Assembly (NCBI GenBank): GCA_040904565.1
Contig: JBBDTI010000022.1
Location: 5,205 to 24,629, forward strand
Direction of reading: 5' to 3'
Origin: Rhodothermales bacterium
Lineage (GTDB): Bacteria > Bacteroidota > Rhodothermia > Rhodothermales > VXPQ01
Length of the DNA: 19,425 nt
The notes beneath the pieces are model-generated. The model did not search any database. It was not told the DNA's origin and was given only the letters and a program-made list of their open reading frames with translations. How positions within the stretch are numbered: the first letter of the stretch is position 1; each line of letters starts with the position of its first letter. This document shows, in pieces, positions 1 to 17,321 of the stretch. The position numbers were made by a program, and so were the translations under genes.

Positions 1-1
1 C

Positions 2-844
2 GGCAAGCGACGGAGGCGCCGCTTTACGGTAGCAGCCGTCGCGGCGGCATGCATCATCCTGTTTGGTATCGGATGGATGTTCACGCCGGCGACGGTCACG
101 ACGCCTCCGGGCGAGCAGCAGGTCGTCCGCCTGCCGGACGGGTCGGCGGTCGAGATGAACAGCGCCACGACGCTGCAGCGCTCCAGACTGTTCGCTGCCG
201 TTCCGGTTTGGCTCGGCGGCGGTCGGAGCATCCTGCTCGAGGGTGAAGCGTACTTCCGTGTGGTCCCGTCAGATGACCCCTTCGTCGTAGAAACGAACGA
301 CGCGATCGTCGAAGTCCTGGGCACCGAATTCAACGTCCGTGCGCGCAACACGCTGGACGAGGCCGGTACGGCCGTTACACTGGCCGACGGGCGCGTTCGT
401 ATATCGTCCAGATCCACAACCGATTCCGTTTCGTCGGCCCCGTCACCCACATCCGTCGTCCTCTCGAAGGCCGGAGACGCGGCTCACGTGAAATCTTCCG
501 GCACCGTAACGCGGACGGACGGCAGCGATGGCTCCTCGCTCGACCATGCATTGGCGTGGCGAAGCAGCGGCTTTGCCGCGATCGACCTTCCCCTTCGTTC
601 CGTTCTCGATGAAATGGAGCACCGCTACGACATCGAAATCTTCCCGCGAGAAGGGGTAGACGTCCGCGCTCCAATAAATGTCTTCTACCTCCGCGGTGCC
701 GAGCCCGAGCAAATACTGCGCGACATCTGCCTTTCCCAGTCCTGTGGGTACCGCGAAACCAGCCGCGGCTATGCCCTCGTAGACCGTGGCAGCGCGTCCA
801 CCGACGACGACCTGATATCGGCGACGCCCGATTCGAGTAACTAA
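2..844 (+). CDS. FecR-family anti-sigma factor / transmembrane sensor, 5'-truncated
   Basis: Frame 2 is open from position 2 and reads GKRRRRRFTVAAVAAACIILFGIGWMF (basic stretch plus TM helix) before the ORF-track start at 77, so the gene begins upstream of the window. FecR motifs: TPPGEQQVVRLPDGSAVEMNSAT, LEGEAYFRV, PFVVET..VEVLGTEFNV, VTLADGRVRI, and C-terminal LAWRSS..DLPLRSVLDEMEHRY. Confidence 0.9.
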   Translation, partial: GKRRRRRFTVAAVAAACIILFGIGWMFTPATVTTPPGEQQVVRLPDGSAVEMNSATTLQRSRLFAAVPVWLGGGRSILLEGEAYFRVVPSDDPFVVETNDAIVEVLGTEFNVRARNTLDEAGTAVTLADGRVRISSRSTTDSVSSAPSPTSVVLSKAGDAAHVKSSGTVTRTDGSDGSSLDHALAWRSSGFAAIDLPLRSVLDEMEHRYDIEIFPREGVDVRAPINVFYLRGAEPEQILRDICLSQSCGYRETSRGYALVDRGSASTDDDLISATPDSSN

Positions 845-871
845 TCGCGGGCCCGTATCTCCATCCCAACC

Positions 872-3640
872 ATGCGAACCCGATACCTCTTGCTCTTTTT
901 AGCCCTCTTCTGCTGGGGGTTCGTGGGCGCCGGCATGGCATGGGGCCAGGACGACGGGCAGCGCTACTCTCTCGTCCTCCGCGGCGTGCACCTGAACGAA
1001 GCGCTCGAAGAGCTGGCCCGCGTAACGGAGATCGACCTGATCTATTCGTCGGAGCTCGTATCGGACCTGGTCGCCTATTGCAACGGCCGCGACATGCCCG
1101 CCGAGCGCCTCCTCCAGTGCATCCTGGCCGAATCGGAACTCGACTACGTGCGTTCGTCAGCCGGAACCTACGTGATCATCGAATCGCTGGAAGACAGTCC
1201 CCTATTCGGTCACGTCGCCGGACGCGTCGTCGACGATGCGACGGGCGCCCCGCTGCCCTACGCCAACGTCCTCCTTGCCGACGCCGCCGCCGGCACGACG
1301 ACGGATGCGGCCGGACTCTTCAGCTTCGCGTCCGTGCTCTCCGGCAGCCACCGCCTCTTCGTTACCTACGTGGGCTACGAAACGGCCGTCGACAGCGTGC
1401 GCATCGAACCGGGAAGCCGTAACAGGCTGGAGATCGGCCTCACCCGGAGCACGCTTTCCATGGAGCCGATCGTTGTAGACGGACTCACTCAGCGGCTACC
1501 GTCGAGAGCGCTCGGTACGGGTACATTAGCCGTCGACGATCGCCTGACCGGTGCGATCGGGACACCCGACGTGGCGCGCGCCGCCGCGGGAATGTCCGGC
1601 GTCTCGATTCGACATCCCCTGGCCGATCTCCATATTCAAGGCGACGATGCCGGAGAACACCTTACCCTGCTCGACGGCGCTCCCGTCCGGGATCCCGTGA
1701 CGCTCGGTCGACACCTGAGCGCGTTCAGCCCGCTCGCCATCCAACGAATCACCGTCCACAAGGCCGGTTTCGGCGCATCACATGGTAGCCACCTGTCCGG
1801 CGTGATCGAGGTAGAGCACGACGTTTCGATACAGGGATCGAGTACGGCGACCGTGCATGTCGACCCGGTAAGCGTCAGCGGAAAAGCGGAGGGGAAGGTC
1901 TCCCTTTCGAACGACCGCAATGCCGTCGGCATGATTTCTCTGAGAAGCAGCATGTGGGACGTCTTCAGGGACCCGGGACTGGAGTCGTTGCTGGACAGGT
2001 GGAATGCCGTCGACCCGATTTTCGCGGGAATCTGGATTCGCGAACCGGTTACGACGGAATCGCTGGCCGCACGGCGCCACCTTCCCGATCTTGCCTTCAC
2101 GGACCTGCATGGCGCCGCGCGCGCAGAGATCACCCCGTTCTCGACCCTTCATGCTTCGGCCTTTCGTGCTACGAACCGCATCGGGTCCGAGCTGGCCATC
2201 ATCAATGCCGACGACGCATCCGAGCTGGACCGGATGATGCTCACGCGTGATGAGTACGACTGGACGAACTGGGCCGGCCAGGTACGATACACCTGGCTTG
2301 CGAATGCCCGCTCGGCCATGACGCTGCAGCTTCTGGCCAGCGGAAACACGTCCAGCTACCGGTATCTGTCACTCTACGAAGACGTCCCTTCCGGTACCCG
2401 GAGCGTCGAACCCTATGCGGAAGAACTCCGGCCGTCGCTCGAGGGCTTCGTCGGTTCCGGTGAGGTCAACACAATCCACGAATACACGGCGCGGGCCACT
2501 TATAGCCGGAGCCTCGCTCCGGACCGCCACCTAGACGTCTCGCTCGAGGCAACGAACGTCGATAGCTGGTTCGAGCTCGGAAACCACTTCGTTGCTCCTT
2601 TCTCCCACGCTGCCGACGCCTGGCACGTGACCGGCTACGCTGAGGGACGGCTTTCGGTCGGACTCCACACGACCATCGAACCCGGATCCCGCCTGACCTA
2701 TCTTCCGGAACGGCAGACGTTCTACGCGGAGCCACGCCTTGCCGTGCGCTTCGATGGGCAGGCAGACGCCATCGGTCACTACGCACTACGCGTCGCGGGC
2801 GGACTCTATCGCCAGTTTATTCCATCCTTTGCGCTAACCAGCTCCGGACCCACCTCGGCGGTACCGTTCGTACGATTCTGGCTCCCGTCGGATCGATCGA
2901 TGGCGCCGCCCCGCTCCTATCACCTGTCCGCCGAAGCCCTCTTTCTTCCGTCCGACCGGTGGACCGCCAGCGTCGAAGCGTATCGCAAGTGGCACCCGCG
3001 TCTGCTTACGGTGGACTACGTGGCGCTGCTCCAAAATCTGCCGGCCGTACGGCCTCGTCCCGATCCGACGCCGCTCGACCAGTCGGATTTCATTGCAGCC
3101 ACTACCGGGCGCTCGCTCGGGGGCAGCATCCGTCTCGCCTATCGGACGGTGCGACACGCCGCATCGCTCCGCTACGGATACAGCCTGTCGGAGCGGCGCT
3201 ATCCGGACCGATTCGAGGATCGGCTTCTGCCCGTTCCGTGGAACGAACCGCACCGCCTGGCCGCCGAGGCACGGTACGGCATTACGTCATTCCTCTCCAT
3301 TCACGTGGACGCTGAAACCACATGGGGGCGCCGATGGGCCCTTCGCCGGACCTATTACGATTACCTGGCTCCAGCCCTCCAGCAGTCCGCATTTCCCCCC
3401 TTCGACCTGGACCATCCCGAAAGACATACACTTCCCGCGTACGTCGATCTTGACCTGGGGCTTTCGTACGACCTCGAGCTCCGTCCGTTGACCGTGCGGG
3501 TCAGTGCTCTTATCGCCAACGTGTTCGACCGGCACAATGTCTACGACTGGAGCCTGGAAGCATCTGGAGATCGGTACCGGACGGTCGACCGATCGCTTCC
3601 GGGCCGTCGGCCCGTCCTCTCCATACGACTCGCGTACTGA
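872..3640 (+). CDS. TonB-dependent receptor/transducer (signal peptide, STN-like domain, carboxypeptidase-regulatory-like domain, plug, beta-barrel)
   Basis: Signal peptide ends AWG|Q. STN-like LRGVHLNEALEELARVTEIDLIY. CarboxypepD_reg-like VAGRVVDDATGAPLPYANV..TTTDAAGLFSF..VTYVGY. Plug LHIQG..LLDGAPV..IQRITVHKAGF.A.HG..LSGVIEV. Barrel EPRLAVRF, YVDLDLGLSY, NVFDRHN, ending in aromatic Y. Lies 27 nt after fecR. Confidence 0.9.
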   Translation: MRTRYLLLFLALFCWGFVGAGMAWGQDDGQRYSLVLRGVHLNEALEELARVTEIDLIYSSELVSDLVAYCNGRDMPAERLLQCILAESELDYVRSSAGTYVIIESLEDSPLFGHVAGRVVDDATGAPLPYANVLLADAAAGTTTDAAGLFSFASVLSGSHRLFVTYVGYETAVDSVRIEPGSRNRLEIGLTRSTLSMEPIVVDGLTQRLPSRALGTGTLAVDDRLTGAIGTPDVARAAAGMSGVSIRHPLADLHIQGDDAGEHLTLLDGAPVRDPVTLGRHLSAFSPLAIQRITVHKAGFGASHGSHLSGVIEVEHDVSIQGSSTATVHVDPVSVSGKAEGKVSLSNDRNAVGMISLRSSMWDVFRDPGLESLLDRWNAVDPIFAGIWIREPVTTESLAARRHLPDLAFTDLHGAARAEITPFSTLHASAFRATNRIGSELAIINADDASELDRMMLTRDEYDWTNWAGQVRYTWLANARSAMTLQLLASGNTSSYRYLSLYEDVPSGTRSVEPYAEELRPSLEGFVGSGEVNTIHEYTARATYSRSLAPDRHLDVSLEATNVDSWFELGNHFVAPFSHAADAWHVTGYAEGRLSVGLHTTIEPGSRLTYLPERQTFYAEPRLAVRFDGQADAIGHYALRVAGGLYRQFIPSFALTSSGPTSAVPFVRFWLPSDRSMAPPRSYHLSAEALFLPSDRWTASVEAYRKWHPRLLTVDYVALLQNLPAVRPRPDPTPLDQSDFIAATTGRSLGGSIRLAYRTVRHAASLRYGYSLSERRYPDRFEDRLLPVPWNEPHRLAAEARYGITSFLSIHVDAETTWGRRWALRRTYYDYLAPALQQSAFPPFDLDHPERHTLPAYVDLDLGLSYDLELRPLTVRVSALIANVFDRHNVYDWSLEASGDRYRTVDRSLPGRRPVLSIRLAY

Positions 3641-3765
3641 GCTACCGCTCCGGGGCCGTACCCCGCCGTCCGCTCCGCAACGAAGTAGACGTCGACGTAG
3701 TCACATCACGCCGCCCGGGTACTATAGGAATACGGAACCCATTCTATGTATTGCTGAGGCTGACC

Positions 3766-6342
3766 ATGAGACTACGCTACTACTTCTCGCTGCTCTTTGC
3801 GGCAGCAATCCTCTTCGCCATCGAACCTTCGCAGGCACAGACGTTCTTCACCGCCGAACTCACCCCGGATCAGGAAACACAGAATGTCGAGAGCAGCGGC
3901 GCCGGAACGGCCGCGCTCGTTCTTACCGATGAAGGACTCAGGTTTCTCGTCACGGTAGACAGCCTTACCGGAGACATCGCCGCCGCTCACTTTCATAACG
4001 CCGCCATGGGCGTGGACGGCGGCGTCGTCCGAGGCATCGGCGACAGCTTCGAAGGAAACACGGCATCGGGCATCTGGACCGCCTCCGACGATCAGGCGCT
4101 CACCGACGAGATGATCGCGGAGCTGTTCGCCGGAAACCTGTATCTCAACGTGCATACCGCCGAGTATGGAGCCGGAGAGCTTCGCGGCCAGGTTCTCCCC
4201 ACATCCGGCGCCGGGCTCTCCGCCCATCTCACGGCAGACCAGTCCACCGGCGACGTGACGAGCGACGGCACGGGCTCGGCATCCGTACAGCTGACGGATC
4301 AGGGCGCCCTGTATTATGTGACCGTGGACGGACTCACAGGCGACATCGCCAATGCACACTTTCATAGCAGTGCGATCGGAACGGACGGAGGGGTCGTCCA
4401 CGGCATCGCTGCCGACTTTGACGGCCAGACGGCCTTCGGCGTCTGGAGACCCGCAGACCTGACCGCGGAGCACCGCGCTTCCCTGTTGCAGGGCGAGCTG
4501 TATCTGAATATCCATACGGCGGCGTATCCCGCCGGCGAGATTCGCGGCCAGGTCCTGCCTTCTACAGGCTGGGGATTTCACGCCGACCTCGATGCGGATC
4601 AGTCGACCGGCGACGTGACGAGCGGCGGCACCGGCACGGGCACGTTTACCCTGACCGACGAGGGGCTGACGTTCCACCTTACCGTAGATGGACTGACAGG
4701 CCCCATAACCAACGCCCATTTCCACCGCGCACCCGCCGGTGAAGACGGTGGGGTCGTGCGAGGCATCATGGACGAGTTCGAGGGTAATACGTCATCCGGC
4801 ATATGGACGTCCGACGACGACCAGGCCCTCTCTGAGGAACTCGTACGCGACCTGCTTGCGGGCAACGTCTACGTCAACATCCACACGGATGCGTATCCGG
4901 CCGGCGAGATCCGCGGACAGGTGCTCCTGAGGGATGGGGCTGAGCTGACCGCCCACCTCACGTCGGACCAGGAGCCTGGCGACGTAACGAGCGAGGCGAC
5001 CGGTTCCGCCGCGCTGTCGCTGACGGACGAAGGACTGTCCTACCGGATCACGGTCAACGGACTCACAGGGCCCATCACGGGCGCACACTTCCACGAGGCA
5101 CGCATCGGCTCCAACGGAGGCGTGGTTCACGGCATCACGGACGCCTTCGACGGCGGCACGGCATCCGGTATCTGGACCTCGTCCGACGACCAACCCCTGA
5201 CGGCCGAACGCATCGAATCCCTCCTGAAGGGCGAGCTGTACCTCAACGTTCACACCGAAGCAAACTCCGGCGGAGAGATACGCGGACAGGTGCTGGTGAG
5301 TGAAGGGGCAGGACTGCGCGCCGCGCTCACGAACGAGCAGGCATCCACCGACCAGGAGGGATCGGGCACCGCGACGCTGACCCTCACGGAGCAGGGCGTA
5401 ATCTACCGTGTGACCGTGACGGGTCTCTCCGGAGACGTGACCAACGCGCACTTCCACGAAGGCGCCGCTGGCGTCAACGGAGGCGTCGTACACGGAATTT
5501 TTGACGCCTTCGATGGCAATACGGCCACCGGCGTATGGACGCCTTCAGATGACCAGCCGCTCACCGACGACATGGTGACGGCACTCGTACGCGGCGAGCT
5601 GTACCTCAACATTCACACGGCGGCGAATCCCGGCGGAGAGATCCGCGGACAGGTCGTGGCCGGCAGCGGCATCGGATCCGCCGTGCAGCTGGATCCCGGG
5701 CAGGAGGGTGCGGGCGTGGAGAGCATGGGCACCGGGACGGCTTCACTCAATCTCACGCAGGCCGGTCTATCCTACAGGCTCACGGCCACCGGCATGACGG
5801 GGACGATCAACAGCGGCCACTTCCATAATGCCCCGTTTGGAGAAAACGGCGGCGTCGTGCGTGGCATCAGCGACGATTTTGTTGACGGTACGGCCGCAGG
5901 CATCTGGCGGGCCTCCGACGATCAGGCGCTGACGACCGAACTCACACGCGAGCTGCTTGCCGGCAACCTCTACCTCAATCTACATACGGCAGCTTATCCG
6001 GCCGGCGAGATTCGCGGCCAAGTACGCCCGGGGAATGTCGTCTCGACTGCGATCGAACCCGCGTCGGACGAGCTGCCGAATTTATTCCGCCTCGAGCAGA
6101 ACTACCCCAACCCCTTCAACCCGTCCACGACGGTTGAATTCGCAATGACGGAGTCGACCCACGCACTGCTCGAAGTGTACGACGTCGTGGGTCGCCAGGT
6201 CACGACCCTGATCGACGGCGTCATGCCGGCGGGTGAATACCAGGTCCGTTTCGATGGGGCGGATCTGCCGAGCGGCGTCTATTTCTACCGGCTTTCGGCA
6301 GGTAGCCGGCAGGCAACCCGATCCATGCTGCTGTTGAAATAG
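3766..6342 (+). CDS. Secreted protein with six tandem CHRD domains and a C-terminal T9SS type A sorting domain
   Basis: The ATG at 3766 gives a clean signal peptide (MRLRYYFSLLFAAAILFAIEPSQA|Q). Six units each contain HFH..GGVV[RH]GI..[LV]Y[LV]N[VIL]HT..GE[IL]RGQV, the CHRD signature. The C-terminus FRLEQNYPNPFNPSTTVEF..LEVYDVVGRQV..LPSGVYFYRL..MLLLK is a typical T9SS sorting domain. Confidence 0.88.
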   Translation: MRLRYYFSLLFAAAILFAIEPSQAQTFFTAELTPDQETQNVESSGAGTAALVLTDEGLRFLVTVDSLTGDIAAAHFHNAAMGVDGGVVRGIGDSFEGNTASGIWTASDDQALTDEMIAELFAGNLYLNVHTAEYGAGELRGQVLPTSGAGLSAHLTADQSTGDVTSDGTGSASVQLTDQGALYYVTVDGLTGDIANAHFHSSAIGTDGGVVHGIAADFDGQTAFGVWRPADLTAEHRASLLQGELYLNIHTAAYPAGEIRGQVLPSTGWGFHADLDADQSTGDVTSGGTGTGTFTLTDEGLTFHLTVDGLTGPITNAHFHRAPAGEDGGVVRGIMDEFEGNTSSGIWTSDDDQALSEELVRDLLAGNVYVNIHTDAYPAGEIRGQVLLRDGAELTAHLTSDQEPGDVTSEATGSAALSLTDEGLSYRITVNGLTGPITGAHFHEARIGSNGGVVHGITDAFDGGTASGIWTSSDDQPLTAERIESLLKGELYLNVHTEANSGGEIRGQVLVSEGAGLRAALTNEQASTDQEGSGTATLTLTEQGVIYRVTVTGLSGDVTNAHFHEGAAGVNGGVVHGIFDAFDGNTATGVWTPSDDQPLTDDMVTALVRGELYLNIHTAANPGGEIRGQVVAGSGIGSAVQLDPGQEGAGVESMGTGTASLNLTQAGLSYRLTATGMTGTINSGHFHNAPFGENGGVVRGISDDFVDGTAAGIWRASDDQALTTELTRELLAGNLYLNLHTAAYPAGEIRGQVRPGNVVSTAIEPASDELPNLFRLEQNYPNPFNPSTTVEFAMTESTHALLEVYDVVGRQVTTLIDGVMPAGEYQVRFDGADLPSGVYFYRLSAGSRQATRSMLLLK
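3847..6024 (+). repeat. Six diverged intragenic repeats of about 120-123 codons (CHRD units)
   Basis: GE[IL]RGQV codons start at 4174, 4534, 4903, 5272, 5635 and 6004, giving periods of 360, 369, 369, 363 and 369 nt, all in frame. Some DNA identity remains, e.g. gcctccgacgatcaggcgct at 4081 and 5911. Confidence 0.9.
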
Positions 6343-6373
6343 TCCTGGAACGACCCGTTCCTCGTCCACCGGC

Positions 6374-6415
6374 AAACACGGCCGTCCGCACTACCGCGGC
6401 GGCCGTGTTTTCTTT
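6374..6415 (+). terminator. Rho-independent terminator after the CHRD gene, possibly bidirectional
   Basis: aaacacggccg(t)ccgc-actacc-gcggcggccgtgttt forms a 15-bp stem with one bulge, followed by tcttt. It sits between convergent genes. Confidence 0.8.
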
Positions 6416-6455
6416 ACGGCCGTCCGGTTCGAACGATGTCGTCCAGAACCGGCGT

Positions 6456-7097
6456 CTATTTTTCGTAGGCCCGCGCGAGTTCGTCGTACATGGCCGCACC
6501 GATCAGCAAGCTGAGCGCTCCGGTAAATACGATGCCGACGATGAAGAACGCGAGTCCGAGGAGGTTGAGCCCTACGAGCGCCAGCGCGACCAGAAAAATC
6601 GCGCCGCGGTGTCCCTCCGTCATCGCCCACGCCTTCTGCAGGGTGTCGATGACGCCGAGATCGTCGTCCAGAACGAGAAACATCGCAGGCATCAGCGCGA
6701 CGGCTACGTAGACGCCCGGCGCGACGAGCAGGGCGAACCCGACGATCATCATCACGGAATACAGGACGAACACCCCGAAACTTCGACCGAACTCGCGAAA
6801 GCCGAGAAACATCTCGCCGAGATCGGGCTCTTCATCGCGTATCAGCCGCAAGGCGAACATGTACACGCCCGCCGTTACGGGCCCCGCGATCGCGTACATT
6901 AGGATCTGGCCGAAATCGAAGAACCAGCCGCTCCGATCCCAGAGTACGCCGCCACCTGTCAGCAGGCTGTAGAGAATGAACACGGCGATCATGAGTCCCA
7001 TGTGCTCTTTGAAGACCCGCCATCCGCGGGTGAACAGCGATCGAACGTCCAGGTCCGGTTCACGTACAACTCCTGGGTCACGTAACATTTCGGCCAT
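6456..7097 (-). CDS. Integral membrane protein, DUF975/YciC-like
   Basis: The ATG at 7097 is preceded by a GGAAGG SD-like sequence. About five hydrophobic helices, with the family-like pattern LFTRGWRVFKEH, GPVTAGVY, DLGEMFLGF, GFALLVAPGVY, GVIDTLQKAWAMTEGH. Confidence 0.7.
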   Translation of the reverse strand: MAEMLRDPGVVREPDLDVRSLFTRGWRVFKEHMGLMIAVFILYSLLTGGGVLWDRSGWFFDFGQILMYAIAGPVTAGVYMFALRLIRDEEPDLGEMFLGFREFGRSFGVFVLYSVMMIVGFALLVAPGVYVAVALMPAMFLVLDDDLGVIDTLQKAWAMTEGHRGAIFLVALALVGLNLLGLAFFIVGIVFTGALSLLIGAAMYDELARAYEK

Positions 7098-7148
7098 GAT
7101 TGATTTTCCTTCCGGATGAGCGTGGGTGCGACGGAGTGCGCCAGTGTG

Positions 7149-7175
7149 CGTGACTGCGCGACCGTGACTGCGCGA
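7149..7175. repeat. 13-bp perfect direct repeat in the divergent intergenic region
   Basis: cgtgactgcgcga occurs at 7149-7161 and 7163-7175. Confidence 0.8.
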
Positions 7176-7366
7176 TAAGGTCTGCCCGGCCCGCTGTCGC
7201 GCTGCATCGTAACGACGTCCGATCTGTCGCAACTTAACGGGTGCGGAGCGCAGGACAGATGGTTCATTTCACATTATACGGACGTTCGCTCGACATGGAT
7301 GCGCTCCATAGCCAAATCGCTGTCTCCCGTTCATTTCCCCTCTCACACCACGCAATAGCGACGACC

Positions 7367-8233
7367 ATGCCACGACGATATTCCGGCCCGCTCTTACTTC
7401 TGTTCGCGGTCCTCGCAATAGGATGCGGAAACCCCGACACGTCGACGGAAGATGGCGTTTCACAGCGCGTGGCCGAAACCGAAGTGCGTCTGAACGCAAC
7501 CGAAGGGGGCGCACTTCTGCTCGAAGCCATCGACGCGCACGGAGGCCTCGAGGCCTGGTACGCGGCGCCGACGAGCTCCTACACCTGGGAATACGCGAAT
7601 GAGCCCGCCGACCTTCAATTTAAGTCGTTCCTCGTGGCGGACAATGAGACGCGCCGCGTCTATCACGATCTGCTGACCGTGGGGGCCTATGGGAATCCGC
7701 GGCCTGTCGAGGCGCGGTTCGCGTGGACCGGCGAGGACGCATGGATGTACCCCGACTCGATCGAATCGGTCAATCCGCGATTCTGGGCAACAACCGGATA
7801 CTATTTCGAGCAGATCCCCTTCATCCTCTCAGACCCCGGCACGTTCCATGAGCGAATGGCCGACGAAGAGCTCGACGGAGAGATGCACGACGTGGTCCGC
7901 GTGACGTTCGGTCAGGGCGTCGGCGACTCGCCCGGCGACGCCTATACGCTGCTGCTCGACAAAGAAACCGGCCTGGTGAACGCTATCCGGTATACGGTGA
8001 CCTATGGACGCGATCCCGACCCCGATGCCACGCCCTCGGAGACGCTGTTCTATTATGAGGACTACGTGACGGTCGACGGGCTCACCGTAGCCACGCACTT
8101 CATGGGATACGATGCCGAAGAGATGACGTTCAAGAATGAAGCCTGGGCCGACTCCATCTCCTTCCGCCGGCGCTTCGATCCCTCGCGGCTCGAGGCACCC
8201 GATGGGGCCCGGTTCGTTCCAGCGCCCAATTAA
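7367..8233 (+). CDS. Lipoprotein, DUF6503-like (possibly LolA-like fold)
   Basis: The ATG at 7367 gives MPRRYSGPLLLLFAVLAIG|C, with a lipobox. The N-terminal motif LLLEAIDAHGGLEAW and YYFEQIPFILSDPG resemble DUF6503. Acidic, beta-rich mature part; ends 25 nt before the ATPase. Confidence 0.65.
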   Translation: MPRRYSGPLLLLFAVLAIGCGNPDTSTEDGVSQRVAETEVRLNATEGGALLLEAIDAHGGLEAWYAAPTSSYTWEYANEPADLQFKSFLVADNETRRVYHDLLTVGAYGNPRPVEARFAWTGEDAWMYPDSIESVNPRFWATTGYYFEQIPFILSDPGTFHERMADEELDGEMHDVVRVTFGQGVGDSPGDAYTLLLDKETGLVNAIRYTVTYGRDPDPDATPSETLFYYEDYVTVDGLTVATHFMGYDAEEMTFKNEAWADSISFRRRFDPSRLEAPDGARFVPAPN

Positions 8234-8258: not shown

Positions 8259-10394
8259 ATGTCGGCCACTCCACATCACGTCGAAGTACCGGTCTCCGGA
8301 ATGGACTGTGCCGGGTGCGCGCGTACGGTCCAACAGGCCATTAGCGCCGTGCCGGGTGTTTCTTCCGCGGAGGTGCTTCTCACCGCCGAGAAGGCGATCG
8401 TTGACCTAGACGACACGGCCCACATCGAGCAGATTCACCGTGCCATCGAAGCGGCCGGCTACGGCGTCCCGGAAACCGATCCTCGGCCAACGGACCGGGA
8501 GGACGACGTGACCGATGATTCGGCCGACGACGTCTCCAGGCAAATCCTGCGTCTGTTTGGATCGATCTTCGCCGCCGTGCTGGTCGTGGTCGTGGCGGGG
8601 GAGGTTCTCGGACTGCTGGACTGGCTCGTCGACGCCGTTCCGTGGTACGTCGGCGCGCTGGCCGTGGCCGGACTCGGTTATCCCGTCTTCAAGCAGGTCG
8701 TCCGGTCGACCCTCCGAGGCCATATCATCGCGCACACGCTGATGGCCGTCGGAGCCGGTGCGGCACTGATTGCGGGACAGTGGGTGACGGCCTTGATCGT
8801 CGTCTTCTTTATGCGGATGGGCGACTACGCGGAACGGTTCACGACCGAGCAGACGCGCGAATCGGTCCGCTCGCTGACCCGCATGGCGCCGCAGACGGCG
8901 CGCGTTGTGTGGGAGGATGAGGAACGTACGGTAGCCGTCGACGAGGTCGAGCCCGATGACATCGTCGTCGTCCGACCGGGAGAACGCATTCCGGTTGACG
9001 GGATCGTGGTGGCCGGACACGCCACCGTGGATCAGTCCGCCATTACCGGAGAAAGCATGCCCGTAGAAGCGGTACCTGGCCGAAAGGTCTTCGCGGCCAC
9101 CATCGCCGGTGGAGGCTCACTGCGCGTCCGATCGACGGCAGCCGGTCGCGATTCGACGTTCGGCCGGGTCATCGAAATGGTGCAGCAGGCTGAACGCCAT
9201 CGCGGAGCCGTGCAGCGGTATGCGGATCGCTTTTCAACGTACTACCTGCCCGTCGTGGCTGCCATCGCGGGAGCTACCTACCTCTTCGGCGGTGGACTCA
9301 TGGCGACCGTGGCCGTGCTCGTCGTCGCCTGCTCGTGCGCCTTCGCGCTCGCCACGCCCGCCGCGATACTTGCCTCCGTGGGTGCGGCGGCGAAGCAGGG
9401 CCTGCTCATCAAAGGGGGCAAGTATGTCGAGGCACTGTCTCGGGCGGATGTGGTGCTGGTCGACAAAACGGGCACGCTCACGCTCGGCCGACCCGAGATC
9501 AGAGAGGTGACGACGCTCAACGGCTTCAGCGAGGACGAACTGATTCGACTCGGCGCATCCGCCGAAAGGTATTCCGAACATCCACTGGCGGACGCCGTCC
9601 GCCGGCTGGCTGCCGATCGCGGCATCGAGCTGGCCGAGCCGGAGGATTTTCACGCCGTGCCGGGAGCCGGCGTGCACGCACGGGTGAACGGCATGGACGT
9701 CCGAGTAGGCTCCGAGCGCGTCGCCGGCGTCGCGGCCGCCGCAGCCTCGACGCTGGAATTGGCGACGCGTACCGGCACGCGTCTATATATCGATGTGGAT
9801 GGGCAGGCCGGCGGCGTACTGTCCGCGGCGGACGCCGATCGAGAAGAGGTCCCCGTCGCCCTCGATGCGCTCCGGCAAATGGGCATCGAGCACATCGAAC
9901 TCCTTACCGGTGATAGGCAGGACGTGGCCGCGGAGCTGGCCTCCAGGCTGGGCATCACCTTCAAGGCCGAGCTGCTGCCGGAGGACAAGATCGAGATCGT
10001 GCGACACTACCAGGGGCACGGACACACCGTCGTCATGATCGGCGACGGCGTCAACGATGCACCCGCCCTCGCGCAGGCCGACGTCGGCATCGCCATGTCG
10101 CGTGGAACCGACGTGGCCACGGAATCGGCCCACGTAGCACTCATGCGGGACGACTGGTCCCTCGTCCCCAGCCTCTTCCGCATTGCACGCCGAACGATGG
10201 GCGTGGTGCGACTCAACATCGGGTTTACGGCCGCATACAACGTGGTCGGACTCGCTCTGGCCGCCTTCGGCTTCCTGCCGCCGATTTACGCCGCCGCCGC
10301 ACAATCCCTCCCCGACATCGGGATCATGGCCAACTCAGCCCGTCTCATACGCCAGGATGACGGCCGCTCGCGATCTCACGCACCGGTCACCTGA
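8259..10394 (+). CDS. Heavy-metal P1B-type ATPase with N-terminal HMA domain and CSC membrane motif (P1B-7-like)
   Basis: GMDCAGC HMA domain, eight predicted TM helices, TGES, ACSCAFALATP (CSC at 9330-9338), DKTGTLT, SEHPLA, TGD, GDGVNDAPALA, YN (10236-10241) and QSLPD (10302-10316). Confidence 0.92.
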   Translation: MSATPHHVEVPVSGMDCAGCARTVQQAISAVPGVSSAEVLLTAEKAIVDLDDTAHIEQIHRAIEAAGYGVPETDPRPTDREDDVTDDSADDVSRQILRLFGSIFAAVLVVVVAGEVLGLLDWLVDAVPWYVGALAVAGLGYPVFKQVVRSTLRGHIIAHTLMAVGAGAALIAGQWVTALIVVFFMRMGDYAERFTTEQTRESVRSLTRMAPQTARVVWEDEERTVAVDEVEPDDIVVVRPGERIPVDGIVVAGHATVDQSAITGESMPVEAVPGRKVFAATIAGGGSLRVRSTAAGRDSTFGRVIEMVQQAERHRGAVQRYADRFSTYYLPVVAAIAGATYLFGGGLMATVAVLVVACSCAFALATPAAILASVGAAAKQGLLIKGGKYVEALSRADVVLVDKTGTLTLGRPEIREVTTLNGFSEDELIRLGASAERYSEHPLADAVRRLAADRGIELAEPEDFHAVPGAGVHARVNGMDVRVGSERVAGVAAAAASTLELATRTGTRLYIDVDGQAGGVLSAADADREEVPVALDALRQMGIEHIELLTGDRQDVAAELASRLGITFKAELLPEDKIEIVRHYQGHGHTVVMIGDGVNDAPALAQADVGIAMSRGTDVATESAHVALMRDDWSLVPSLFRIARRTMGVVRLNIGFTAAYNVVGLALAAFGFLPPIYAAAAQSLPDIGIMANSARLIRQDDGRSRSHAPVT

Positions 10395-16428: not shown

Positions 16429-16986
16429 TCAGATCAGAAAGACGGAAAGATGGGCTGGAGAGAGAGGTGGGAGGGGCGGCGATCCGACCCGCGAAATAGG
16501 AATGCGCACCGTAGGAGGCCGCACTATGGCCTCGGCTACGAGCGCCGTCGTGGCCACCGGCACGACGCCCGCCTCTTCGTAGGCGAACTTTACCGGCGTG
16601 GCGGGACGGTCGAATATGGGCGACTCGAAGACGCAGCAGGATAGATTCGGCTGCGACGCATCCCCAGGAGCCGACTCGCTCGCTTCGTGGTGCATCCCAT
16701 GGCGCATCTCATTGCCCGACGCGTCGTGGTGCATCCCATGGCGCATCTCATTGCCCGGTGCTTCGTGGTGCATCGCATGGGCCGACGCGTCCACCTCACC
16801 AGGATGGTCGTCTTCGTCCGTCTCCTGATTGCAAACGGCAGCCGCCATACGGGGCTGGACAACGCACGCCGCGTGGACTACCGGCAGAATGACGAGCCAC
16901 AGCATGGCCGCGAGAGCGATGGAGGCCGCCCATCTATACGCTGCCGCTGTTTGGGCTGATCGATATGTCGCAAGGATACCTCGCAT
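16429..16986 (-). CDS. His/Met-rich exported leader-type protein with HxxC, CC and C-terminal PP motifs (DUF2946 / HYC_CC_PP-like)
   Basis: Hydrophobic segment WAASIALAAMLWLVILPVVHAAC, His/Met repeats, SCC, and the ending SPPLPPLSPAHLSVFLI*. It lies 122 nt upstream of tolC on the same strand. The start is uncertain: ATG 16986, or ATG 17070 / GTG 17073 overlapping the upstream stop. Confidence 0.65.
   Translation of the reverse strand: MRGILATYRSAQTAAAYRWAASIALAAMLWLVILPVVHAACVVQPRMAAAVCNQETDEDDHPGEVDASAHAMHHEAPGNEMRHGMHHDASGNEMRHGMHHEASESAPGDASQPNLSCCVFESPIFDRPATPVKFAYEEAGVVPVATTALVAEAIVRPPTVRIPISRVGSPPLPPLSPAHLSVFLI
16682..16780 (-). repeat. 39-bp tandem repeat, about 2.5 copies, encoding [PS]GNEMRHGMHH[DE]A
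   Basis: Units at 16682-16720 and 16721-16759, partial unit at 16760-16780. The core tcgtggtgcatcccatggcgcatctcattgcccg is identical in the two full copies. Confidence 0.93.
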
Positions 16987-17069
16987 TCGGACGCGTAACG
17001 AAACGACGGTCTCCAGGTTTCGTGCCCGCTCCCGTATCGCGTGGACATCACCGAACCCCCGGCGAAGCA

Positions 17070-17321
17070 TCACGCGGCCTGCATCCGCCGATAGACCCAG
17101 ATCAACAGCAGTCCGCCAACCACGGCGAGCATAAAGCTGCCGACGTTAAAGCCCGAGATGCCGCCCAGTCCGAAAAGCGACCCGATGAAGCCGCCCACGA
17201 CGGCACCCGCGATACCCAGAAGGATCGTTACGAACACACCGCCGGGATCGGATCCCGGCATGATCCATTTTGCGAGCGCACCGGCAATCAAGCCGAACAG
17301 GATCCAGGAGAGAATTCCCAT
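17070..17321 (-). CDS. GlsB/YeaQ/YmgE family (transglycosylase-associated) small membrane protein
   Basis: MGILSWILFGLIAGALAKWIMPGSDPGGVFVTILLGIAGAVVGGFIG..SFMLAVVGGLLLIWVYR, 83 aa. GAGGAAG SD upstream of ATG 17321. Confidence 0.9.
   Translation of the reverse strand: MGILSWILFGLIAGALAKWIMPGSDPGGVFVTILLGIAGAVVGGFIGSLFGLGGISGFNVGSFMLAVVGGLLLIWVYRRMQAA

Follow-up and report, generated by a model that had tools for sequence, protein, structure and literature searches.

A secreted six-repeat CHRD protein as the probable target of a FecIRA-type signalling system in a Rhodothermales bacterium

Genes of the locus

This work deals with a stretch of 19,425 nucleotides (nt), here called the window, from the genome of a Rhodothermales bacterium (assembly GCA_040904565.1, contig JBBDTI010000022.1, positions 5,205 to 24,629), and with three of its genes: a fecR-type anti-sigma gene, a gene for a TonB-dependent receptor (TBDR) of the transducer type and a gene for a secreted protein with six CHRD repeats (6xCHRD). 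In our labelling G### stands for genomes (G000 is the genome of the window), L### for fetched loci and C## for contigs of G000, thus the window is G000:C22:5205-24629; the genome has 4.02 Mb and is 95% complete. The open reading frame (ORF) listing and Pfam place all three genes on the same strand. They are separated by gaps of 27 nt (845-871, fecR-TBDR) and 125 nt (3641-3765, TBDR-CHRD), and a strong terminator follows the CHRD gene: its hairpin has a predicted free energy of -28.9 kcal/mol (z -5.45), a value equalled by none of 200 shuffled sequences. The initial annotation of the locus had described the trio in just this way, and its co-orientation, gaps and terminator were all reproduced. 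No terminator-like structure was found in the 125-nt gap (z -0.56), so read-through from the upstream operon into the CHRD gene is also possible. The features are collected in Table 1.

Table 1. Features of the locus (positions refer to the window unless a contig is given).
Feature	Position	Strand	Basis and remarks
Extracytoplasmic function (ECF) sigma factor gene	C22:4230-4817		Sigma70_r2 60 bits, r4_2 66 bits; TIGR02985 137 bits (cut-off 126)
fecR-type anti-sigma gene, 3' 280 codons	2-844	+	PF04773 FecR 58 bits
TonB-dependent transducer gene, 922 aa	872-3640	+	Pfam, PDB profile, AlphaFold2 (AF2)/Foldseek
ECF-type promoter-like motif GTAGTCAC-N13-GGTACT	3697-3723	+	43 nt before CHRD ATG; GAGG Shine-Dalgarno between
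Secreted 6xCHRD protein gene, 858 aa	3766 (ATG)-6342	+	CHRD x6 498.9 bits; Por_Secre_tail
CHRD repeats, superoxide dismutase (SOD) fold	3841-4206, 4213-4566, 4573-4932, 4942-5298, 5308-5664, 5677-6036	+
Type IX secretion system (T9SS) type A C-terminal sorting domain	~6103-6321	+	Por_Secre_tail 32.4 bits (cut-off 27); TIGR04183 33.3 bits (cut-off 23)
Intrinsic terminator of CHRD gene	6371-6416	+	Hairpin 6371-6413, then U-run UUUUCUUU
DUF975 membrane-protein gene	6456-7232	-	Convergent to CHRD gene
Lipoprotein gene	7241-8233	+	Lipobox LAIGC; stop 26 nt 5' of ATPase gene
P1B-type ATPase gene	8259-10394	+	N-terminal HMA domain; membrane motif A-C-S-C-A
ORF of 214 aa, upstream of cusC	16429-17073	-	Three His/Met-rich repeats (e.g. 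HGMHH...GNEMR); no Pfam family

The initial annotation had pointed to the region upstream of the window as the place where an ECF sigma gene should be sought. The contig runs 5.2 kb further in that direction, and such a gene does lie there, directly 5' of fecR and just outside the window; its stop codon overlaps the fecR start codon (ATGA). The part of fecR inside the window encodes the transmembrane helix, the periplasmic FecR domain and the C-terminal part of the protein, and the first ~79 codons are outside (C22:4814-5104). About 79 residues stand before the hydrophobic stretch. The product has the short cytoplasmic N-terminus, the single transmembrane helix and the periplasmic FecR domain that characterize FecR proteins. 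The gene is interrupted by a run of 100 N just before the first base of the window (C22:5105-5204), with about 55 nt duplicated on each flank (window 1-55). A metagenome contig from a public DNA run bridges this gap in frame, skipping 155 bases, and because it joins both sides, we regard the N run as a scaffolding artefact (an unmerged overlap) and the gene as intact.

The transducer consists of a signal peptide, an STN-like region (~32-104), a CarboxypepD_reg N-terminal extension (115-202), a plug and a beta-barrel. Pfam recognized the extension (CarbopepD_reg_2, 64 bits) and, slightly under the cut-off, the plug (22.7 vs. 23.9 bits), and found no match for the barrel. The STN domain named in the initial annotation did not reach the Pfam threshold (17.5 bits, cut-off 28.4); support for it came from a profile of 22 orthologues, which among PDB sequences matched the signalling domain of PupA (2a02, E 0.004) as well as the N-terminal extension and plug of SusC, and from the FpvA-like fold. 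In the AF2 model (predicted local distance difference test, pLDDT, 79.7; predicted template modelling score 0.77) strands and helices alternate in the STN region (pLDDT 72-88). The best Foldseek match of the model was full-length FpvA (E ~5e-22), followed by PfeA, FoxA and SusC; there were 213 PDB matches at E <=0.001, and those among the top matches listed were all TonB-dependent transporters. A TonB-box-like sequence, EPIVVDG, with conserved Pro199 and Gly204 lies at residues 198-204, as judged against the general consensus only, and with it the protein has the plug, the barrel and the TonB box of a TonB-dependent receptor. We considered whether it might be a SusC/RagA protein with a SusD partner and rejected this assignment: TIGR04056 scored 38.1 bits (cut-off 368) and matched the N-terminal extension only, and the next gene is the CHRD gene, in line with the earlier statement that no SusD-like gene follows.

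An ECF sigma factor, a FecR protein and an STN-bearing TBDR together form FecIRA-type signalling systems, which classically respond to iron complexes or glycans. G000 contains a second, paralogous sigma-FecR-TBDR triad (C62:21848-26243; L090), whose TBDR is 34% identical to the one in the window; this triad has neither the promoter motif described below nor a CHRD neighbour.

A shared promoter-like motif and the conservation of the locus

The element GTAGTCAY-N13-NGKWCT is common to the gaps between TBDR and CHRD genes (7 of 7 aligned loci) and to the regions upstream of the sigma genes (6 of 6). In its strict form it has exactly two matches in the 4.02 Mb of G000, one upstream of the sigma gene and the other upstream of the CHRD gene. 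A relaxed form, written as a regular expression, gave 26 matches in 39 loci. Of these, 13 stand just before sigma genes, 8 before the gene behind the TBDR and 3 before unlinked CHRD operons (G006, G031 and G020), 24 in all; the other 2 lie elsewhere. It must be noted that some of the genomes in which the motif was counted had also served to derive it. When 15 whole genomes were searched with the exact IUPAC pattern, 14 of the 20 matches fell at sigma, post-TBDR or CHRD sites and 6 fell elsewhere. The reversed pattern gave 12 matches in the same genomes, thus the 6 stray matches correspond to background.

Single genomes are instructive in this respect. G039 has exactly two matches, before the sigma and before the CHRD gene. 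G031 also has exactly two, but there the second precedes an operon of Rieske, cytochrome b561, YceI and 6xCHRD genes which is 92 kb away from the sigma gene. The only match in G020 lies before an operon that encodes a 3xCHRD protein together with an MntR-like protein and a ZnuA/AztC-like ATP-binding cassette (ABC) importer, and the sigma gene of this genome is preceded by a variant of the motif with one mismatch. The G020 operon (L061:3240-9434) starts with the gene of the 3xCHRD protein, a T9SS cargo, and continues with those of the MntR-like repressor, the ZnuA/AztC-like binding protein, the ABC ATPase and the permease.

Because the motif is common to the sigma and CHRD upstream regions, is conserved and is nearly unique in the genome, the CHRD gene is, as far as sequence can tell, most likely a direct target of the sigma-FecR-TBDR signalling system. 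We infer that the motif depends on the sigma factor; its conservation at two sites, its near-uniqueness and its persistence in trans would be hard to explain otherwise. The initial annotation had left two options, that the CHRD array feeds the transducer or that it is induced by it, and it is the second option that gains support from the shared motif.

Each of the 61 related genomes searched contains TBDR homologues in the form of several paralogues. Eighteen of 20 fetched homologue loci have the order sigma-fecR-TBDR, and the other two are cut by contig ends. The downstream side is visible in 17 of these 20 loci. The 6xCHRD gene is directly next in 5 of the 17, which are among the closest orthologues (50-58% identity); the remaining 12 (39-49% identity) are followed by unrelated genes, for example for an aldo-keto reductase, a radical-SAM or an FG-GAP protein. 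According to the initial annotation, its proposal would be undermined if homologous fecR-TBDR pairs sat beside unrelated cargo, and this arrangement was seen only for TBDR homologues of no more than 49% identity. The fecR-TBDR-CHRD synteny that it put forward for a check holds in the closest Rhodothermales orthologues and was not detected beyond Rhodothermales in loci L091-L160. Among the 61 related genomes, which are kin and not independent samples, CHRD occurs in 22 of the 25 that have a TBDR homologue of at least 40% identity and in 11 of the 36 that have none.

The 6xCHRD gene lies immediately after the TBDR gene in G000, G001, G002, G004, G005, G039, G058 and L099. In L093 and L097 the order is (sigma-)fecR-TBDR-Rieske-cytochrome b561-YceI-6xCHRD; in G046 and G020 the triad is followed by Rieske, b561 and YceI without CHRD; and G031 has Rieske-b561-YceI-6xCHRD without an adjoining triad. 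It follows from these loci and from the direct TBDR-6xCHRD neighbours that the TBDR, Rieske/b561/YceI and CHRD groups are adjacent in every pairwise combination. One could argue that there is no functional link at all, i.e. that the 6xCHRD gene merely happens to stand behind a sigma-FecR-TBDR cassette which is mobile and is combined with many unrelated genes. The unrelated neighbours of the more distant TBDR homologues would fit this idea, and so would a phylogenetic tree in which no single CHRD-linked clade is resolved. We find it hardly credible, as the nearly genome-unique motif is kept even where the CHRD operon is 92 kb off, and as the three gene groups adjoin one another in all pairings.

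Some further neighbours were recorded. The Rieske/b561-YceI-6xCHRD operon is also present in the record (CP030158.1, L122) of a cultured Rhodothermales strain, Roseithermus sacchariphilus MEBiC09517. A small lipoprotein (C-x4-C-H; weak PSCyt1 match, E 0.013), YceI and a DUF5777 barrel recur after TBDR homologues and beside CHRD genes in other phyla (L042:7309-9249, L037:6207-6650, L116:10710-12242, L129:7157-7711), and a set of this type is present in G000 (C67:4277-5802). In two Saprospiraceae metagenome-assembled genomes (MAGs) an ECF sigma gene and a gene for a protein of 413-457 aa stand directly 5' of the 6xCHRD gene, and the same place in a Balneolales MAG is taken by a gene for an RskA-type anti-sigma factor (L110:6521-11046, L112:5898-10689, L130:7766-11052). 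These neighbours suggest that 6xCHRD genes are tied to ECF regulation elsewhere too, without a TBDR.

Fold and histidines of the CHRD repeats

The CHRD protein would have 863 instead of 858 aa if translation started at the alternative TTG codon at position 3751. It begins with a hydrophobic Sec signal peptide that ends SQA-Q, and since the T9SS sortase PorU is encoded in G000 (C82, 986 bits), export through T9SS is plausible; sorting domain, Sec signal and secretion machinery, the features of type A cargo, are all present. Six stretches of the protein belong to the CHRD family PF07452. Repeats 2-6 are 53-61% identical to repeat 1, and orthology repeat by repeat is partial: the best match was at the equal position in 31 of 66 comparisons.

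Repeat 4 was modelled with AF2 at a pLDDT of 97.3. In a VIA alignment of the repeat model the best 15 rows were all chains of the SOD family (Z 10.2-7.2), and unrelated immunoglobulin folds scored 6.8 or lower. The fold matches include the Cu-only SODs 1pzs, 4n3t and 8aca (Z 7.2 for 8aca). When a profile of 128 repeats was compared by hhalign with SodC proteins of Rhodothermales (E 1.1e-4, probability 56%), the His-Phe-His of CHRD was placed on the copper-ligand His-Val-His of SodC; with the six repeats of the window alone the match was weak (probability 11%).

Every repeat carries the signature His-x-His...Asn-x-His...Gly-Glu-x-Arg-Gly-Gln. A count over 154 repeats (37 loci, many phyla) shows no exception for the three His and the Asn (154/154), one for Arg (153/154) and two each for Glu and Gln (152/154). 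For the third His this count has a reservation: the residue was part of one of the patterns by which the loci were found, which means that one repeat or more in each locus had been pre-selected for it. His-x-His and the remaining repeats were unselected. The invariant histidines and the homology to the SOD copper site make metal binding by the triad plausible. Classification of the repeats as Cu,Zn or Cu-only SODs (PF00080) was rejected: the Greek-key fold is there, but there is no Sod_Cu match in Pfam, the column of the bridging His is Trp, and the repeats have no Cys and therefore no disulfide.

It is useful to compare the CHRD array with the Cu-only SODs and with the animal Cu-only SOD repeat proteins (CSRPs). 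Like these, it consists of extracellular SOD-fold domains without a zinc site, arranged as six tandem repeats with short linkers, an arrangement reported for many CSRPs (PMC13017621), and its His-x-His aligns with copper ligands. Unlike these, CHRD forms a Pfam family of its own. It has three invariant histidines where SODs have four, it lacks the disulfide, and it adds an invariant Asn, Glu, Arg and Gln that are particular to it. In the CSRP review (PMC13017621) CHRD is nowhere mentioned.

The resemblance raises the question of whether the 6xCHRD protein could be a surface antioxidant, that is, a bacterial counterpart of the Cu-only SODs and SOD repeat proteins which handles extracellular superoxide, while the triad is no more than a sensor of some envelope or oxidative cue, and whatever the TBDR imports is unrelated to CHRD. 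Besides the Cu-only SODs among the fold matches and the CSRP-like architecture (six short-linked extracellular repeats; PMC13017621), this idea can appeal to the redox partners encoded in the sister loci (Rieske, cytochrome b561, YceI), and to a Polynucleobacter CHRD protein which, according to PMC7522526, rises together with an adjacent catalase-related peroxidase. We nevertheless consider it unlikely, since the bridging His is Trp, there is no Cys to form a disulfide, and G000 already encodes a canonical SodC; it also leaves a full TonB-dependent transporter without a role, as it does the importer of MntR/ZnuA type which is co-transcribed with CHRD in G020.

The Deinococcus S-layer deinoxanthin-binding complex (PDB 8aca) offers another SOD-fold protein at the cell surface. 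Its Cu-only SOD subunit, DR_0644, is reportedly attached to an outer-membrane barrel complex. The likeness to the CHRD protein is in the fold only, as the Deinococcus barrel is unrelated, there is no signalling triad, and the SOD domain is a single one.

Chordin is the animal relative. The profile of the CHRD repeats matched the crystal structures of chordin CHRD domains at sequence level with E 1.4e-12, yet despite this no chordin CHRD chain was among the Foldseek or VIA matches listed. The bacterial and the chordin domains belong to the same Pfam family and share the SOD-like Greek-key barrel, but in the alignments shown the histidines and most of the other invariant residues are replaced in chordin, with only Gly-Glu-x-Arg-Gly in common. 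PMC13382577 describes the chordin structures (PDB 9rd6, 9igm, 9qvv) as SOD-like barrels with no metal and without the SOD histidines.

CHRD domains were also seen in other large T9SS cargo proteins, with up to eight repeats and fused to SusE-like, cadherin-like/Big_9, cohesin, lamin-tail, DUF4397 or DUF5689 domains (L057, L054, L070, L064, L066-L068, L079, L073, L080, L138, L131). The SusE-like fusion occurs in 3 of the 21 large T9SS proteins scanned. Together with the heparan sulfate binding that PMC13382577 attributes to chordin CHRD, these SusE-like fusions would suit a glycan system, in which the locus is a unit resembling a polysaccharide utilization locus (PUL) that lacks SusD, and the CHRD array is a surface glycan binder feeding a SusC-like transducer. 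In its favour, the N-terminal extension of the transducer is SusC-type and the sigma factor belongs to the type that has expanded in Bacteroidetes. We regard such a role as quite improbable: the cluster has no SusD gene and no conserved gene for a carbohydrate-active enzyme (CAZyme), the score against the SusC/RagA model (TIGR04056, 38 bits for a cut-off of 368) is far too low, redox proteins and a metal importer take the place of glycoside hydrolases among the conserved partners, and an invariant His triad would be unexpected at a glycan site. More generally, the locus resembles the ECF/anti-sigma/SusC-like transducer systems of Bacteroidetes PULs in its TIGR02985 sigma factor, in the order STN, extension, plug and barrel, and in its occurrence in a Bacteroidota-related lineage with T9SS, but differs from them in having neither SusD nor CAZymes, in a barrel that is far from the SusC/RagA model, and in partners that are redox or metal proteins.

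Copper efflux neighbours and the proposed role of the CHRD array

The initial annotation had placed the trio beside copper efflux genes. The P1B-ATPase and cusCBA genes are indeed present in the window, yet the DUF975 and lipoprotein genes intervene between them and the CHRD gene; the lipoprotein matches no family of Pfam or NCBIfam, and G003 has no homologue of it at the equivalent place. The copper interpretation drawn from these neighbours was not supported. P1B-ATPase or cus genes adjoin 6xCHRD only in G000 and in its nearest relative G003 (TBDR 68%, CusA 87% identity), and the other TBDR and CHRD loci examined gave no P1B or cus match nearby. In the scan of G000 the P1B-ATPase and cus genes of the window had no motif upstream. 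Neither conserved linkage nor shared regulation, which would mark a copper-homeostasis island, was therefore seen. The ATPase passes both the Cd/Zn and the Cu subfamily models of NCBIfam, and its membrane motif reads C-S-C in place of the CPC that is usual in copper pumps. Assignment to the P1B-6 group was tried and dropped, because that group is defined, in bioRxiv 10.1101/2020.01.10.902569, by the signature D[Y/F]SCA and by the lack of an N-terminal metal-binding domain, unlike the A-C-S-C-A motif and the HMA domain found here.

Two smaller observations belong to this region. The His/Met-rich ORF upstream of cusC (Table 1) is likely to encode a periplasmic Cu/Ag-binding accessory protein. 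In G003 a cupredoxin-like gene (L082:6326-6724) lies between the ATPase and cusA genes, and the window has no counterpart of it, as its ATPase and cusA genes overlap tail to tail.

If a copper island united the CHRD array and the transducer in function with the P1B-ATPase and cusCBA genes next to them, one would expect the recurrence of the order 6xCHRD, DUF975, P1B-ATPase, cusA, which is seen in G003; the His/Met-rich protein, the heavy-metal-binding domain of CusB, the cupredoxin-like gene of G003 and the homology of the His triad to a copper site would also agree with this. We think it very unlikely, considering that the adjacency is confined to the closest kin, that the convergent gene and the terminator divide the two groups, that the efflux genes lack the promoter motif and that the ATPase lacks CPC. 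Most probably these efflux genes are mere bystanders.

The interpretation that we favour, and that we believe about as much as we doubt it, is that the locus is a FecIRA-type unit whose regulon comprises its own operon and the 6xCHRD effector, a surface array that serves the acquisition of a transition metal or redox metal. A ligand at the transducer would free the sigma factor from FecR, and the freed sigma factor would transcribe the sigma-fecR-TBDR genes plus the CHRD gene. The CHRD protein would leave the cell via Sec and T9SS and would be anchored on the cell surface or shed from it. At the surface its six three-histidine sites could bind a transition metal, and array and transducer together would acquire the metal, or a redox-active metal species, by capture or by redox change. 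In sister loci the regulon would be extended by a periplasmic Rieske protein, a di-haem cytochrome b561 and YceI, or by MntR and a ZnuA-type ABC importer; both sets of partners fit a redox-assisted metal-uptake pathway. We favour acquisition of a metal or redox metal because of the invariant site of three histidines, the recurrent Rieske/b561/YceI genes and the MntR/ZnuA importer under the same motif in G020. Copper would be the first metal to consider, given the homology of the His site to the copper site of SOD. The response of multi-CHRD genes of Trichodesmium to iron and dust, reported in PMC5776111, fits a role in metal handling.

Several observations weigh against this proposal. On the regulatory side, besides the partial circularity of the motif counts, the best matches to an E. 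coli-type Fur box upstream of the sigma and CHRD genes agreed with it at 9-10 of its 19 positions, which does not exceed the genome background, though the consensus used may not fit the phylum. The linkage of the genes is incomplete: 6xCHRD genes without a TBDR neighbour occur within Rhodothermales (G006, G031, G040, L104, L109, and G020, with three repeats), and outside Rhodothermales no TBDR orthologue was found beside 6xCHRD (tblastn of L091-L160; Pfam of up to four neighbours, 27 loci). A tree of 22 TBDRs puts the CHRD-linked ones in four lineages of an unresolved clade of 18 members. Homologues of Rieske, b561 and YceI were not found in G000 (E 1e-5), and the predicted regulon of this genome contains no inner-membrane importer or reductase. 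The matches to SODs are weak as well: the Foldseek matches listed for the repeat model were all SODs, but at E 0.013 or weaker, and the sequence match of the CHRD profile to SOD had E 0.24. The third His of CHRD was aligned to SOD by no program, and with the bridging His replaced by Trp at most three of the four copper ligands are possible. Chordin CHRD binds glycosaminoglycans (heparan sulfate) and not metal, according to PMC13382577, and the fusions of CHRD to SusE-like, cohesin and cadherin-like domains would equally fit a general binding module.

It is of interest how the proposed metal-acquisition unit relates to the known FecIRA, FoxIRA and FpvIRA systems. It shares with them the ECF sigma factor, the FecR anti-sigma factor and the transducer, the translational coupling of sigma and anti-sigma genes, and the succession of signalling domain, plug and barrel in the transducer. 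To judge by the motif that precedes its putative targets, it would also share the use of sigma-type promoters. It differs from them in the SusC-type CarboxypepD_reg extension of the transducer and in that no Fur box was found. The motif precedes the sigma operon and a separate effector gene and not the transducer gene alone, and a T9SS cargo built of SOD-fold repeats stands in place of a siderophore or haem pathway as the effector.

In the literature searched, no function or regulation is recorded for bacterial CHRD domains, and no paper connects such proteins with TonB-dependent signalling, with copper or with T9SS. According to the initial annotation no described system is known to have such a layout, and our search likewise found none. 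The locus would offer a first regulatory context for bacterial CHRD domains, in the form of a putative two-promoter regulon which has a defined regulator and seems to be almost free of other targets. The three-histidine site is invariant and the recurrent partner genes hint at a redox step. A bolder view, which is possible but in our opinion doubtful, would see the CHRD arrays as prokaryotic counterparts of the extracellular Cu-only SOD repeat proteins, i.e. as surface strings of mononuclear His3 sites switched by TonB-dependent signalling, which with Rieske, b561 and YceI would make up an undescribed trans-envelope pathway of redox-assisted metal acquisition. If the metal-acquisition proposal is true, FecIRA-type signalling would extend to the control of a T9SS-secreted effector, and a domain common to bacteria and the animal bone morphogenetic protein (BMP) antagonist chordin would receive its first biochemical role.

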